DNA of 64,000 nt from a virus, in the IMG/VR virus record IMGVR_UViG_3300043775_002839, positions 29,706 to 93,705 of that record; one strand, given 5' to 3'. A program made the position numbers and the translations under genes. Every line of letters starts with the position of its first letter. Position 1 is the stretch's first letter. This document shows positions 24,084-64,000 of this stretch, piece after piece. The notes below the pieces were generated by a model. The model worked only from the letters and a program-made list of their open reading frames with translations, did not search any database and was not told where the DNA came from.

Positions 24084-24150
24084 GGTGTTTAGCCTGGAAT
24101 TGAAACAGAATCAACACTTCGTTATATAAATCTAAACTAAAGAAATAAAA

Positions 24151-29650: not shown

Positions 29651-29761
29651 ATACTTATTAAAACATATTCGATGCTCAGTTAAGAAGCAAAAAACTGAAA
29701 TAATATCGAAAACTCGTAATATACGAAAACATAAAACCATTAAAAAAAAATAAATTTACAA

Positions 29762-59397: not shown

Positions 59398-60522
59398 ATG
59401 GAAAACAATAATTCAGTTTGCTACATAGCAAAAATACATGAAGTACGGGCAATCGAAGGTGCAGATAACATCGAATTAGTTATCGCAGGTGGATGGAACG
59501 CCATCACAAAGAAAGGCGAATTTAATGTAGGAGCCTTAACTATTATTGCAACAACAGACGCAGTAATACCTGAAAAACTTTCTGAAAAGATGGGAGTAAC
59601 TAATTACTTAAGAAAAGGTAATAGAGTCAGAACTGTAAAATTACGTGGAGTCTATTCAGAGTGTTTAATCATTCCAGTAATATATGCTAAAGCCAGTTCT
59701 ATATTAGAAGGAAAGGATTTAATGAATGAACTTGGTATCACTAAATATGAGCCACCAGTTAAACAAGTTCAATTGGCATCTGGTAGAAAAATTAAGTGGA
59801 GAGATAACCAAAACTTCCACATCTACTACAAGTTTCCAAACCTTAAAAATGTGGCTGGATTATTTACCCAAGAGGATGAGGTTCAAATCACCAGAAAATT
59901 GCATGGAACCAATGCACGTTATGGTATCGTAAAGAAATCTAAATTGACCCTCTGGGACAAGGTAAAGAAATTCTTAAGAATTGCTGACGAATGGGTTGAC
60001 TATGAGTACATCTACGGTTCTCATAACTGTGAGAAAGGTTCCGACTCTCAAGGATTCTATTCAACTGACGTTTGGAGAACAATCGCTGAAGAATATGGTA
60101 TCAAAGAAAAACTTTGGAACTATGCAAAATTCTTTGGAGCTAAGTATATTGGAGAAGGGGTAATTATTTATGGAGAAATTTATGGAGCTGGTATTCAAAA
60201 GAACTATACTTATGGATTGGAAAAAATTCAATTCGCAGGATTTGATACTAAAGTAAACGGAGAATATCAATCATTAGGTTTAGCATATAGCAGCATGGTT
60301 TTAGGGTTGGGATTGCCTCACGTAGAGGTACTTTACAATGGACCATGGTCTCAAGAGGTACAAGATAGTTTTGTATTCGGTAACTTCATTGATGGTACTA
60401 AAGTGCCTCATGAAGGAATTGTAATCAAGCACATCTCTGGTGAAAGAAACAAGGTGGCAAAGGTTATTAACCCAGACTACTTGATTTATGGTGAAAAAAA
60501 TAACGTAGGAGATTCACATTAA
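59398..60522 (+). CDS. RNA ligase, DRB0094/Rnl2-like, with N-terminal OB domain
   Basis: IEGADNIE, KLRGVYSE, motif I KLHGTN, YGEIYG, FD, EGIVIK, KVINPDY. Confidence 0.88.
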   Translation: MENNNSVCYIAKIHEVRAIEGADNIELVIAGGWNAITKKGEFNVGALTIIATTDAVIPEKLSEKMGVTNYLRKGNRVRTVKLRGVYSECLIIPVIYAKASSILEGKDLMNELGITKYEPPVKQVQLASGRKIKWRDNQNFHIYYKFPNLKNVAGLFTQEDEVQITRKLHGTNARYGIVKKSKLTLWDKVKKFLRIADEWVDYEYIYGSHNCEKGSDSQGFYSTDVWRTIAEEYGIKEKLWNYAKFFGAKYIGEGVIIYGEIYGAGIQKNYTYGLEKIQFAGFDTKVNGEYQSLGLAYSSMVLGLGLPHVEVLYNGPWSQEVQDSFVFGNFIDGTKVPHEGIVIKHISGERNKVAKVINPDYLIYGEKNNVGDSH

Positions 60523-60529
60523 AATAATT

Positions 60530-60793
60530 ATGAAATATAAAGTTTATATGACACAATACGTAACAGCTAGAGTTGCGGTAGAGATAGAAATTGAATCAGA
60601 CAAGGATACTGACGAATTAGAGGAAGAAATTTATGATGCTATTGAGGATTGGACAAGGCTTTCAAGGTTTGACCCAGATATAGAAGAATTTCCAGGTTCA
60701 TATGTTGCTAAATCTTATAAATATGATTTAAAATATGATGGAGATGATGGAGATGAGATAGAAGTTTATATTGAAAAAAATGAGGTTGAATAA
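60530..60793 (+). CDS. Acidic hypothetical protein
   Basis: D/E-rich 87 aa. Confidence 0.55.
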   Translation: MKYKVYMTQYVTARVAVEIEIESDKDTDELEEEIYDAIEDWTRLSRFDPDIEEFPGSYVAKSYKYDLKYDGDDGDEIEVYIEKNEVE

Positions 60794-60843
60794 AAAATCA
60801 CATTAAAAAACTTCTATCTTCATATTTATAAGATATATAATAC

Positions 60844-61797
60844 ATGAAAAGAATTAAACTATTTGAACAGTTTATTGCAGAGAAGGAGGACAATTCTGAT
60901 TTGCATAAAATCTATTTGGCTATTGATCCTGGTAGTGGGCACCGATGGTGGTCCTATAAAGACTTTGCCGGAGATAATTTCTTTGTACAGGTAACACTTG
61001 ACAATTATAAAGATATTGACATTAACCCAGAATATCCAATCCTTACATACAATTCTGGAGTAACTCAAAAGCTCCTAGACGAAGGGTTGATTAAAAAAGA
61101 AAATGTCTACAACCATCCAGAGCATATTAAACAGTCTGGTTCTAAGGCAGAATTCCATAAGTTGGTTGAAGGCGATGAAAATATCCCAAAAACTGCTCAT
61201 AATGAAAAAGATGCCCTAGAGATTGGATTCCCATTAATTGGAAAACCAGCAGAGGGACACTCAGGACTTGGTATTCAAATCTTTAAGGATCAGAAATCAT
61301 GGGACGATGCAGACCATTCGAAATTAGATGTTTATTCAGAATATATTGATAAAGCAGCCGAACACCGATTGATTACTTTTAAAGGAAAACCATTCTTTTG
61401 GATGGAAAGACAGCCAATGAACGACAAAGCAAAATCTGGAGATGGAAAAGGAGCTGAAAAAATGATGTTCAAATATATCAAAAAGGATGTTACCAAAATA
61501 CCAGGAAAATTCAACGACCTTGTTGAAAAGTTCGGTAAAATATTTTCAGACTTACCATATATCTGTTTTGATATTATGGAAGACCGTTCTGGAAAACTAT
61601 ACATAATTGAAAGTAACAGTCAACCGGGAGTACCGTTTGATTCTACAGTTCAGGCATACAGACAATTATTTAATGATTTCTACGGTCGCGATGTAAATCC
61701 AGCGGCTAACACCGAGCTCGAGAAATTGAGTAACTATATGATTAAGAAAACCCTGGACTTTGACCCAAAAAGATTTGAAATCGATGAAAAAATTTAA
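60844..61797 (+). CDS. ATP-grasp (RimK-like) ligase with N-terminal MKRIKLFEQFIAE tag
   Basis: FPLIGKP..GHSGLGI, EHR, FDI, IIESNSQPG. Confidence 0.8.
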   Translation: MKRIKLFEQFIAEKEDNSDLHKIYLAIDPGSGHRWWSYKDFAGDNFFVQVTLDNYKDIDINPEYPILTYNSGVTQKLLDEGLIKKENVYNHPEHIKQSGSKAEFHKLVEGDENIPKTAHNEKDALEIGFPLIGKPAEGHSGLGIQIFKDQKSWDDADHSKLDVYSEYIDKAAEHRLITFKGKPFFWMERQPMNDKAKSGDGKGAEKMMFKYIKKDVTKIPGKFNDLVEKFGKIFSDLPYICFDIMEDRSGKLYIIESNSQPGVPFDSTVQAYRQLFNDFYGRDVNPAANTELEKLSNYMIKKTLDFDPKRFEIDEKI

Positions 61798-62230
61798 ACT
61801 ATTTGAAGAATTTAAAAATTCTACAGCATGTCCAGTTCCGACTAAAGACCTAGAAGTTAATACTAAAAACAGAGACCGTGCAATTAAAGCAGAGCATATT
61901 GAATATGGTCCCTTAAATGTTGACGAACCTGCTGGATTTTGGGAACATATTGCAGACCACTGGAATACTAGCGTAGAAGCTGCTAAAAAATCATTATGCG
62001 CAAACTGTGCTGCATTTGATGTTTCACCAAGAATGAAAGAATGCATGCCCGGAGAATTAAGCGACCCAGATGGTGAATTAGGATATTGTTGGATGCACCA
62101 GTTTAAATGTCACTCTGCAAGAACATGTTATACGTGGGCTAAAGGTGGACCAATATCAACTGACAAAATCTCTTTTAATTGGCAAGAGAAAAATCAAGAC
62201 GCTGCAATGAACAAAAATCCTATAAAATAA
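61784..62230 (+). CDS. Cys/His-rich putative metal-binding protein with MKKFKLFEEF tag
   Basis: CANC...C...GYC..H.FKC...RTC..W; likely start ATG 61784. Confidence 0.65.
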   Translation: MKKFKLFEEFKNSTACPVPTKDLEVNTKNRDRAIKAEHIEYGPLNVDEPAGFWEHIADHWNTSVEAAKKSLCANCAAFDVSPRMKECMPGELSDPDGELGYCWMHQFKCHSARTCYTWAKGGPISTDKISFNWQEKNQDAAMNKNPIK

Positions 62231-62231
62231 T

Positions 62232-62774
62232 ATGAAAAGAATTAAATTATTCGAAGAGTTCTTGAATGAAAAGGAGAATGTAACGCACAATTTTAATTGC
62301 GCAATGTTATACTTTGACTTTCCGGCAATGGCAACTCTACACCAATCAATTCGACCTGAAGATATATACACAGTAGAAGCAGATGAAAGTTACGGTCTTG
62401 AAGATGAACCTCACTGCACCTTATTATACGGACTTCACCCTGAAGTAACAGTGGACCAAGTTGCAGATAAATTAAAAGGAATCAAACTTGGTGAGTGCGT
62501 TGCTCACAATCTATCTCTTTTTGAAAATAAAGACTTTGATGTCTTAAAATTTGATATGGAAGGTGATAATCTTCACAATGCAAATAAAGCACTTAGCTCG
62601 CTTCCGCACACTACGGACTATCCGGATTACATGCCACACATGACTGTTGCCTACTTAAAACCAGGTAAGGGTTCTGAATACTTAAAAATATTAAACTCGC
62701 AAGAGCATTCTCTAAAACCACTTCATATTACTTACAGTATGACAGATGGCTCTAAACAAAAAATAGATTTATAA
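62232..62774 (+). CDS. 2H phosphodiesterase (T4 57B/Acb1-like or LigT-like) with MKRIKLFEEFLNE tag
   Basis: Two HxT motifs: PHCTLLYG and YMPHMTVAY. Confidence 0.85.
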   Translation: MKRIKLFEEFLNEKENVTHNFNCAMLYFDFPAMATLHQSIRPEDIYTVEADESYGLEDEPHCTLLYGLHPEVTVDQVADKLKGIKLGECVAHNLSLFENKDFDVLKFDMEGDNLHNANKALSSLPHTTDYPDYMPHMTVAYLKPGKGSEYLKILNSQEHSLKPLHITYSMTDGSKQKIDL

Positions 62775-62776
62775 TT

Positions 62777-62956
62777 ATGAAACAAGAATCATTAGACAAA
62801 ACATTAGGACTTGTTAGACACATTCTAACATTTATAGGAGGTTACTTTGTAACTTCAGGAGTTTTAACAGAACCTACTCTTAGCACAGGAATTGGTGCAA
62901 TTGCAACTCTTATCGGTGTGGTATGGTCAGTTATTGATAAAAATAAAGCAGTATAA
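62777..62956 (+). CDS. Small two-TM holin-like protein (59 aa, not in ORF track)
   Basis: MKQESLDKTLGLVRHILTFIGGYFV...GAIATLIGVVWSVIDK. Confidence 0.6.
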   Translation: MKQESLDKTLGLVRHILTFIGGYFVTSGVLTEPTLSTGIGAIATLIGVVWSVIDKNKAV

Positions 62957-63018
62957 TTTGAAACAAGTAGGTTTCGGATTGTATAACTTTAAAATTAAAT
63001 AACATTAAACAAACCAAA

Positions 63019-63189
63019 ATGAAAAAAGTATTTTTAGCATTAGCATTTATTGCAGCATTAGCAGTTACATCTTGTAATAAGAAAGTAGAAACTACAACAA
63101 CAGGAGCAGACTCTACATCCGTAGTAGTTGATTCAGTTGCAGTAGACACTATAGCAGTAGACACTATAGCAGTTGACACTTTAAAGTAA
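63019..63189 (+). CDS. Small Bacteroidetes-type lipoprotein (56 aa, not in ORF track)
   Basis: MKK-hydrophobic-VTS|C signal II, then NKKVE and repeated D(S/T)x; middle-type promoter at 62960. Confidence 0.75.
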   Translation: MKKVFLALAFIAALAVTSCNKKVETTTTGADSTSVVVDSVAVDTIAVDTIAVDTLK

Positions 63190-63271
63190 TTAAAACTTTA
63201 ACAAAATTTTAACACTCCAGACTTTCGGGTCTGGGGTTTTTTGTTTATATTTACATTATAATTAAAACAAT

Positions 63272-63496
63272 ATGATACGAAGTAAACAAGAAAAAAACGG
63301 ACCGATTATTATAGACCTTACAGGTCCTGATGGAAATGCATACGCTCTTATGGCCTATGCTAGAAGATTTGCAACCCAATTAGGATGGTTAGACTGTGGG
63401 TCGGCACTTATTAACGAAATGATGAGTGGAGACTATGAGAATCTACTACAAGTATTTGATAATGCATTCGGTGAATTTGTAATCCTAGAAAGATAA
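63272..63496 (+). CDS. Hypothetical phage protein
   Basis: IDLTGPDGNA...GDYE.L...F; after an early promoter. Confidence 0.65.
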   Translation: MIRSKQEKNGPIIIDLTGPDGNAYALMAYARRFATQLGWLDCGSALINEMMSGDYENLLQVFDNAFGEFVILER

Positions 63497-63855
63497 TGGC
63501 TAAATATAAAATACCTAGAGACCGGGTCTTTAAAGACTTTGGAATCATGAGAACGCTTACAGGTACCTATATCTGTCCGGGATGGATTCCTGTAGATGAA
63601 GGAACAACCCGAGAGGATGTAGAGTTTAGCGACGATATAATTATTGAGAAACCAATAGTTTCAACCCAATTGAAGACTGAGACTCAGGTAGACCTTGAAT
63701 TTGTGGTACCATCATCAAATGGAAAATCTGAATACTTGGTCCGTTTTCAGAGAGGAGTTTGGAGTTGTAACTGTCCCGCATCAAGTTTCCGAAGAGGAGA
63801 TTGTAAGCATATCAAAGCCCTTTCAATTGAAAACCAACCATTTGAAAATAAATAA
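63496..63855 (+). CDS. SWIM zinc-finger protein
   Basis: WSCNCP...CKHI. Confidence 0.75.
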   Translation: MAKYKIPRDRVFKDFGIMRTLTGTYICPGWIPVDEGTTREDVEFSDDIIIEKPIVSTQLKTETQVDLEFVVPSSNGKSEYLVRFQRGVWSCNCPASSFRRGDCKHIKALSIENQPFENK

Positions 63856-64000
63856 AAAATAAATGGAATTTACATTGAATTTCATGAAACAAAAAGATAT
63901 ATAATACTATAATATACATAAGAAAATTAAATCTTATATATAATTAAGACAAATAAAACAATTACAATGCAAACAATTCAAAGACATATCATTTTTATGG

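Follow-up and report, generated by a model that had tools for sequence, protein, structure and literature searches.

The window analyzed here is a stretch of 64,000 nucleotides (positions 29,706 to 93,705 of IMG/VR virus record IMGVR_UViG_3300043775_002839), and near its end lies a small gene (63019..63189) for a predicted lipoprotein whose mature part is packed with O-glycosylation sequons of the Bacteroidota type. The viral contig is 93,705 bp long and ends with the window; it has a G + C content of approximately 33%, and almost all of its genes lie on the + strand. PHROG matches identified the contig as a distant T4-like myovirus; the matched genes included those for a gp55-like late sigma factor, clamp loader, UvsX, gp46/47-like nuclease, portal, prohead protease, major head protein, sheath, tube, and T4-type terminase. 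The contig is incomplete, and the DNA of its relatives runs on into an array of 10–18 tRNA genes. The window stretch was present in freshwater lake metagenomes.

The precursor agreed with a lipoprotein rule of the PROSITE PS51257 type, which consists of N-terminal positive charge, an uncharged hydrophobic stretch, and a lipobox Cys at positions 15–35. K2 and K3 lie within the first seven residues, the six residues ahead of A-V-T-S-C are uncharged, and this sequence ends in Cys19. Among the 109 + strand open reading frames (ORFs) of the 93.7-kb contig, the product of this gene was the sole lipobox match, and a Cys occupied the lipobox place in 63 of 63 family sequences. No PHROG or Pfam match was obtained for the lipoprotein, the weak match to Pfam LPAM_1 reaching 13.5 bits vs. 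a cut-off of 20. An AlphaFold model based on the family alignment showed a helix at residues 4–19, corresponding to the signal peptide, and low-confidence coil in the remainder, with a mean predicted local distance difference test score (pLDDT) of 58.7. The sequon array was modeled as coil only (pLDDT 53–61).

The general O-glycosylation motif of Bacteroidota has been described as D-(S/T)-(A/I/L/V/M/T) in non-cytoplasmic proteins (PMC12871550). Five such sequons, DST, DSV, DTI, DTI, and DTL, were found at residues 31, 38, 43, 48, and 53 of the lipoprotein. Their density was 8.9 per 100 amino acids (aa), compared with 0.30 per 100 aa for the contig ORFs as a whole (89 sequons in 29,444 aa), which is an approximately 30-fold difference. 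The last three sequons are not independent events, because they lie inside one 15-bp tandem repeat. An earlier model-made annotation from the letters and ORF translations, hereafter the sequence-only reading, had proposed this ORF with its lipobox Cys and its sequon-packed mature part. These calls were borne out and the five sequons were confirmed, with the correction that 37 residues, rather than 38, follow the Cys. By sequence, the combination of a signal peptide and five sequons is that of a substrate for Bacteroidota O-glycosylation. In a review, sequons of exported proteins were reported to be almost fully occupied, and engineered sequons to become glycosylated (PMC12871550). The features of the locus are listed in Table 1.

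Table 1. Features of the lipoprotein locus in window coordinates.
Feature	Position	Strand	Remarks
Lipoprotein gene, 56 codons plus stop	63019..63189	+	ORF as in the sequence-only reading
Signal peptide (residues 1–18) and lipobox V-T-S-C (63064–63075), with Cys19 as predicted lipid-attachment residue	63019..63075	+	PROSITE-type rule
Five O-glycosylation sequons	63109..63183	+	Codons at 63109, 63130, 63145, 63160, 63175
15-bp tandem repeat, 2.8 copies, A-V-D-T-I units	63139..63180	+	Tandem Repeats Finder score 77, 96% matches
59-aa two-helix membrane protein, holin family	62777..62956	+	Pfam PF23987 Phage_holin_10 (Pam3 gp28 family)
Promoter-like element TTTG, TGAAAC-N17-TATAA, in the 62-bp gap before the lipoprotein gene	62957..62986	+	33 bases 5′ of the start
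Late-type promoter-like motif ATATATAA	60833..60840	+	Heads the unit running from 60844 through the holin and lipoprotein genes to the terminator
Intrinsic terminator-like hairpin and T run	63214..63245	+	Hairpin 63214–63237; 10-pair stem with 5 G-C pairs, then TTTTTTG

The consensus of pentapeptide repeats has Leu or Phe as its central residue. A pentapeptide-repeat beta-helix was considered for the mature part and dropped, as there was no Pfam match and the central residue of the unit is Thr or Ser.

The lipoprotein belongs to a large family. A word-indexed search yielded 26 relatives of 51–64 aa, and a scan of viral contigs found the family at 36 loci. When a profile of 53 members was searched against 1.84 billion representatives, 2,710 clusters (50% identity) were matched at E ≤ 1e-3 and 76 at E ≤ 1e-10. 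From the top 150 listed, the best 147 representatives were examined; 144 of them were no longer than 90 aa, and these carried a lipobox in 141 cases and three to eight sequons in 139. Nearly all family members were lipoproteins of 47–83 aa with three to six sequons spaced five or seven residues, and the number of units differed among relatives (46–68 aa, three to six sequons). A look-up of 10 cluster representatives returned metagenomic sources only, with automatic names that were generic or plainly wrong. Three long proteins (P0027, P0029, and P0100; 678–1,160 aa) also matched the sequon-repeat part of the profile through many V-D-S-x-K-like units; these matches are probably driven by composition, and at least two of the three look eukaryote-like or unrelated.

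Across 55 distinct mature peptides, 239 sequons were counted in 2,028 aa (11.8 per 100 aa), whereas 2,000 composition-preserving shuffles gave 43.3 ± 5.7 and at most 64. The counts include P0018, which is apparently frameshifted and has no sequon. Asp was followed by Ser or Thr in 243 of 259 instances (94%), and the third position of these D-S/T pairs was V, T, I, A, L, or M in 239 of 243 (98%), although those residues make up 55% of the composition. The distance from sequon to sequon was five residues in 126 cases and seven in 45. Overall, the mature parts consist of 22% V, 21% T, 13% D, and 9% S. Because the counts, the D-S/T pairing, and the set of third-position residues all exceed what composition gives, the sequon appears to be what selection keeps. 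From these counts, the three-residue sequon is read as the conserved unit, while the intervening residues and the number of units vary.

The sequence-only reading had overlooked that the lipoprotein looks like a phage copy of a widespread kind of host lipoprotein, the PG1828-like proteins. Its neighbor cluster in the ESM Atlas is auto-named "putative PG1828 family lipoprotein," and NCBIfam NF050142 (PG1828 family lipoprotein, 59 positions) was matched by 53 of 53 family members at E ≤ 1, the best of them (E 3.2e-13) being estimated to lie about at the curated cut-off. True chromosomal members were fetched because NF050142 also picks up plain signal peptides. A match over the cut-off was found in 11 of 301 Bacteroidales genomes. 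The bacterial members examined (n = 15; 10 over the cut-off alone, one with its neighbors in frame, and four just under) were lipoproteins of 54–73 aa with one to five sequons. Conversely, the phage-side profile matched 12 of 401 genomes of Bacteroidales' class at E ≤ 1e-8, and the proteins in those 12 genomes include lipoproteins of 60–75 aa with four or five V-D-S-A-A-A units. A profile–profile comparison (hhalign) of the 53 phage-side members with 23 bacterial ones gave 98.6% probability and an E value of 6.9e-16 over 56 columns.

The prototype of the family, PG1828 (PGN_1739) of Porphyromonas gingivalis, is a triacylated, TLR2-activating outer-membrane lipoprotein (PMC13466725; PMC10126205; PMC11225709), and its triacylation offers an analogy for lipidation of the phage product. 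PG1828 is listed in the P. gingivalis O-glycoproteome as a 7.1-kDa protein with four predicted O-glycosylation sites (PMC8729774, Table S6). Like this family, the phage proteins have a precursor of approximately 55–75 aa with an MKK... signal peptide and a lipobox, and a short low-complexity mature part with several D-S/T-hydrophobic sequons. In contrast to the alanine-rich V-D-S-A-A-A units of the bacterial members fetched, the phage proteins are built from V-D-S/T-(T/V/I)-x pentads. The genomic settings also differ, since the phage copies behave as mobile cassettes, whereas the chromosomal PG1828-like genes lie in housekeeping surroundings free of phage genes. Of the 13 Bacteroidales loci scanned (L068–L082), 10 have the gene next to one for an AMP-binding (acyl-CoA-ligase-like) protein; the rpsF-rpsR-rplI genes and a gene for a MiaB-like enzyme were other bacterial neighbors. 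MutS and 3-deoxy-D-manno-oct-2-ulosonic acid (Kdo) transferase genes adjoined the gene in three of nine other Bacteroidia loci. The adjacency to AMP-binding and Kdo transferase genes indicates a possible functional link to lipid or lipopolysaccharide metabolism. Judged by this kinship in build, the window gene appears to be a phage-borne, fast-evolving relative of the chromosomal PG1828-type lipoproteins.

The predicted location of the product was derived from the residues after the lipobox. A lipoprotein export signal has been reported as C-X-K-(D/E)2-X with a net negative charge, with SDDDD or SDDFE in other genera (PMC5080379). The window protein reads C-N-K-K-V-E at this place, with a net charge of +1, and the pattern K/Q-x?-(D/E)(D/E) was present within the first six mature residues in none of 55 family members. 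The sequence-only reading had likened KKVE to the surface-export signal and had taken the peptide as displayed on the cell surface; neither proposal is supported by these residues. Its O-glycosylation reading survives in the lipoprotein-type precursor and in the conservation of the Bacteroidota sequon throughout the family, and loses the surface export signal. Because there is no lipoprotein export signal, the product is most likely retained in the envelope facing the periplasm.

The gene is accompanied by expression signals of its own. Three strand-biased classes of promoter-like motif were found in the contig. The motif ATATATAA (24 on the + strand, three on the − strand) precedes the sheath, tube, prohead protease, and other structural genes, and TATATTTACA (11 on +, none on −) follows hairpins. 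The third class, TGAAAC-N15–19-TATAA (11 on +, one on −), always lies shortly 5′ of gene starts and precedes the genes for the gp55-like sigma factor, clamp loader, and RNA ligase as well as the lipoprotein gene. It may be read by the sigma-70-family sigma factor of the phage itself (57620..58234) and would then be a candidate middle-gene switch. Examples of promoter-like motifs lie at window positions 24101, 32932, 59364, and 62959. We infer from the layout of signals that the unit from 60844 through the holin and lipoprotein genes is co-transcribed; the hairpin at 63214 was the sole terminator-like site found in 62000–64000.

This hairpin belongs to an intergenic cassette that is repeated five times, on the + strand only (window 52534, 52752, 53212, 57533, and 63194). 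Each copy spans approximately 60–80 bp between small early-region genes and is built of AACTTTAACAAAA..TTTTAACAC, a G + C-rich hairpin with a T run, and TATATTTACA. It resembles the mobile terminator-plus-early-promoter cassettes reported for T4-type phages.

The lipoprotein gene occurs in varied contexts. The neighbors seen in the window were common to only six of the 36 viral loci; elsewhere, the gene adjoins QueC, RNA ligase, GIY-YIG/HNH homing endonuclease, gp32, NUDIX, or tRNA genes. A TTTG-N20-TATATTTA element was located upstream of it in at least 10 non-syntenic loci, and this element resembles the Flavobacterium sigma-A −7 box, reported as TAnnTTTG (PMC9723704). The mature-coding part was the least conserved segment in four of five syntenic relatives (65–92% DNA identity); in L001, it was the second lowest with 84%, vs. 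83% for the phosphoesterase gene. The flanking intergenic regions were 84–100% identical in the five relatives, and the promoter-like element was more conserved than the coding part. We read the gene as a self-contained accessory cassette ("moron") moving between large phages, because a promoter-like element and a terminator accompany it, its contexts vary, and its flanks are conserved.

Contigs from four metatranscriptome libraries matched the holin–lipoprotein stretch (e.g., 62731–63154, 424 nt, with 10 differences). These are assembled contigs with possible DNA carry-over, and a two-gene contig does not prove a single transcript, so that they provide weak evidence of expression; stretches that no such contig covers are uninformative. 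The deepest metatranscriptome contig (depth 264, from one freshwater library) matched only 41 bases of the window (63005–63045) and continues like small lipoprotein genes in metagenome-assembled genomes (MAGs) of Ferruginibacter/Chitinophagaceae. Its depth therefore indicates strong expression in lakes of host-type small lipoproteins that begin in the same way.

Several features of the contig point to a host in the Bacteroidota, as the sequence-only reading had surmised from the sequons. A Shine–Dalgarno core was found in five of 96 genes, leaders were A-rich, and A occupied position −3 in 63 of 96; A-rich leaders poor in Shine–Dalgarno sequences match the description given for Flavobacterium (PMC6847099). 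Promoter elements of the Bacteroidota TAnnTTTG-like type were present, and this kind of lipoprotein was found in Bacteroidota genomes only. The nearest cultured relatives of the terminase were those of Sphingomonas phage PAU, followed by Tenacibaculum and Flavobacterium phages. In addition, small lipoprotein genes of Ferruginibacter/Chitinophagaceae MAGs share the first 27 coding bases of the lipoprotein gene without a mismatch and the 14 bases upstream of its start with one or two mismatches, which is no more than a hint toward the Chitinophagaceae. A signal-peptide pattern scan of genome contigs gave at least 21 confirmed matches, all in Bacteroidota; most match the signal peptide only, and they are mostly unrelated lipoproteins with an MKKVFLALA start rather than a census of the family. 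Among cultured phages, megablast of 60000–64000 and tblastn of the lipoprotein and of the holin gave no match, and the low-complexity filter may have masked the lipoprotein query. A profile search of Flavobacterium phage MaF61, Tenacibaculum phages PTm1 and pT24, and the uncultured LR756500 gave only matches at the level of the signal peptide (approximately 20 bits), and no cultured phage is known to carry the gene.

The gene directly before the lipoprotein gene passed the Pfam PF23987 threshold (57.7 bits vs. a cut-off of 27; E 1.2e-15), which confirms the holin-like neighbor named in the sequence-only reading. It also matched PHROG 37382, of unknown function, and the literature search found no paper on the Pam3 gp28 holin family. 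The downstream neighbor of the lipoprotein gene is a 74-aa soluble ORF.

Taken together with the build of the protein, these data are best accommodated by an envelope modification. The host Sec/Lgt/LspA pathway would turn the prolipoprotein into a lipopeptide of 38 residues, which would have no fold of its own and would carry five Bacteroidota O-glycosylation sites approximately five residues apart. After processing and glycosylation, the peptide would be held by its lipid anchor and bear a dense cover of glycans. Such a phage-specified version of a host glycolipoprotein would alter the envelope of the infected cell, and the likeliest effect would be hindered adsorption or entry of further phages. 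Envelope modification against other phages is favored because the gene has its own promoter-like element, is spread across unrelated phages, and encodes a fast-changing mature part with variable repeats. For this explanation as a whole, the chances appear evenly balanced. Lipidation and glycosylation of the product are probable, to judge from its predicted features. Exclusion or masking as the function, as raised in the sequence-only reading, is a tentative proposal, with the balance tilting away from it. It is doubtful that the most specific version applies, in which a phage of Bacteroidota builds a glycan-dense lipopeptide through host O-glycosylation, the number of sites shifts by repeat slippage, and the product serves as a glycan shield against other phages or as a decoy for the glycosylation system.

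Several points weigh against this explanation. The window protein scored 43.8 bits against NF050142 (E 3.3e-11, profile positions 1–58), vs. a curated cut-off of 50, and the same model matched ordinary lipoprotein signal peptides in seven of 14 control genomes at E ≤ 0.01, none of them over the cut-off. Shared signal peptides and biased composition may have raised the profile–profile score as well. The bacterial prototype PG1828 is not known to be glycosylated, because it had no spectral matches and no identified sites in the O-glycoproteome (PMC8729774, Table S6). The repeat lacks K and R, a probable reason for this missing detection. The export rule was reported from Capnocytophaga, Bacteroides, and Flavobacterium only (PMC5080379) and may not hold in the present, uncultured host. 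Rapid divergence of a peptide that is disordered and encoded by repeats may be a sign of weak constraint and not of an arms race. Finally, the gene directly follows the holin gene and shares its terminator, a position that fits lysis too.

A role in lysis had been considered possible in the sequence-only reading; the lipoprotein would then act after the holin as the outer-membrane half of a spanin-like system or as another outer-membrane disruptor. The local setting speaks for it, with the lipoprotein gene 62 bp behind a Pfam holin-family gene on the same strand, a late-type promoter motif at the head of the unit, and a mature size of 37 residues that resembles lambda Rz1. Elsewhere in the family, L031 carries just upstream a 106-aa helical protein with an N-terminal transmembrane (TM) segment and a weak Rz-like PHROG match (E 8.6e-5), five loci (L018, L019, L020, L029, and L035) carry a 92–118-aa N-terminal-TM coiled-coil ORF one to four genes downstream, and seven of 53 family members weakly match NCBIfam spanin2_2 (best E 0.0084). 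However, these N-terminal-TM candidates have no homologue in the contig, where no inner-membrane spanin (i-spanin) partner adjoins the lipoprotein gene and the sole long N-terminal-TM ORF lies at the far start of this incomplete sequence. PHROG searches of the 64 window ORFs, a second scan of 25 of these against Pfam, and a Pfam scan covering 30 of the 35 ORFs in the first 29.7 kb of the incomplete contig detected no endolysin or spanin family. None of 77 neighbor ORFs at 31 loci (30 non-syntenic loci and L032) matched a Pfam lysis family, and the neighbors at 30 of 36 loci are of unrelated, non-lysis kinds. No PHROG or Pfam spanin model matched the window protein, and none was among its nine NCBIfam matches. 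The mature peptide contains neither Pro nor Cys, its close look-alikes are housekeeping chromosomal genes of bacteria without phage neighbors, and its own promoter-like element is of the class preceding replication-type genes. A lysis component is thus considered unlikely.

The kinship with a chromosomal family in housekeeping contexts also fits envelope maintenance, in which the phage would supply an abundant, small host-type outer-membrane lipoprotein to preserve envelope integrity after host transcription is shut off, without any phage–phage conflict. The start region shared with Ferruginibacter/Chitinophagaceae MAG genes, the strong expression of which such host genes are capable (the depth-264 contig), and the host-type promoter element on many copies agree with this. 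A mere stand-in for the host protein should follow its sequence closely, whereas the mature part diverges faster than its surroundings and uses V-D-S/T-T/V instead of V-D-S-A-A-A units; PG1828-deficient P. gingivalis mutants are moreover reported to exist (PMC13466725). Maintenance is accordingly rated as rather improbable. The sequons might instead be a by-product of a Val/Asp/Thr/Ser-rich repeat with another role, such as a spacer, and not be glycosylated. The origin of three of the five sequons in one 15-bp repeat, the extreme composition, and the lack of identified sites in PG1828 would suit such a case, but order matters beyond composition, with sequons 5.5 times as frequent as in the shuffles, the third residue varies among six kinds yet keeps to the allowed set, and the family was found only in Bacteroidota genomes and phages with Bacteroidota-type signals, which makes it a slim prospect. 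A decoy substrate, by which a highly expressed sequon peptide would drain O-glycan donor or transferase and leave host envelope proteins, including phage receptors, under-glycosylated, is compatible with a fold-less peptide whose sequon is almost its sole conserved mature feature. A dense array would use many glycans per molecule, because sequons are normally near-fully occupied (PMC12871550). This proposal is pure inference, and the lipid anchor is invariant although unneeded in a soluble decoy, and bacterial relatives of the same build exist in uninfected cells; it is thought very unlikely.

The envelope modification proposed here has parallels among characterized phages. T5 Llp and the Cor proteins of T1-like and lambdoid phages are phage lipoproteins that block receptors or entry; they are folded and bind FhuA. 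The window protein shares with them a small size, a lipid anchor predicted for a phage-encoded product, an accessory gene, and a proposed action on the envelope of the infected cell, but it differs in its disordered sequon array and host phylum, and no sequence relation to them was found (Pfam, PHROG, and NCBIfam). Like the outer-membrane spanins (o-spanins) of the lambda Rz1 type, it is a very small predicted outer-membrane lipoprotein encoded beside a holin gene; unlike them, it lacks a nearby i-spanin gene and Pro or Cys in its mature part, most of its relatives lie outside lysis cassettes, and it has chromosomal look-alikes. It resembles the known substrates of Bacteroidota O-glycosylation in having a signal peptide, sequons in an unstructured region, and allowed third residues only. 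In contrast to the usual substrates, it has one site per five to seven residues and little else, and its gene is viral. No paper on phage-encoded lipoproteins of the PG1828-like or sequon-rich kind turned up in the literature search.

PG1828-type lipoproteins are abundant and immunologically active components of the Bacteroidota envelope. The fast-evolving cassette copies in many large freshwater phages suggest a role in phage–host conflict or envelope upkeep. If the product is indeed glycosylated, phages would exploit the O-glycosylation system of Bacteroidota, and the sequon array could serve as a compact reporter. If the most specific version of the explanation is true, this would be the first bacterial virus making a glycolipopeptide through a host protein-glycosylation pathway, and a first function would be assigned to PG1828-type lipoproteins. 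The gene is a very small, easily expressed test object, and it allows the phylum of the host to be called for a T4-like lake phage that is uncultured.

Further genes were observed in the surroundings of the holin and lipoprotein genes. Directly before the holin gene (62232..62774), the window encodes a 2H-phosphoesterase over the threshold of Pfam Acb1, an inhibitor of the cyclic-oligonucleotide-based anti-phage signaling system (anti-CBASS; 31.8 bits vs. 27). In the close relative L015, which lacks the 74-aa ORF after the lipoprotein gene, an extra 252-aa gene lies two genes upstream of the holin gene (L015:2469-3224) and matches Pfam Tad3 with 75.2 bits. Tad3 is an inhibitor of type I Thoeris. 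This gene in L015 suggests that the region is an anti-defense and accessory-gene island. In the tRNA regions of two other loci, ARAGORN predicted tRNA-like genes with the four-base anticodons ttga (L016:7028-7117) and ccta (L035:4160-4243), which could be frameshift-suppressor-like tRNAs or prediction artifacts.

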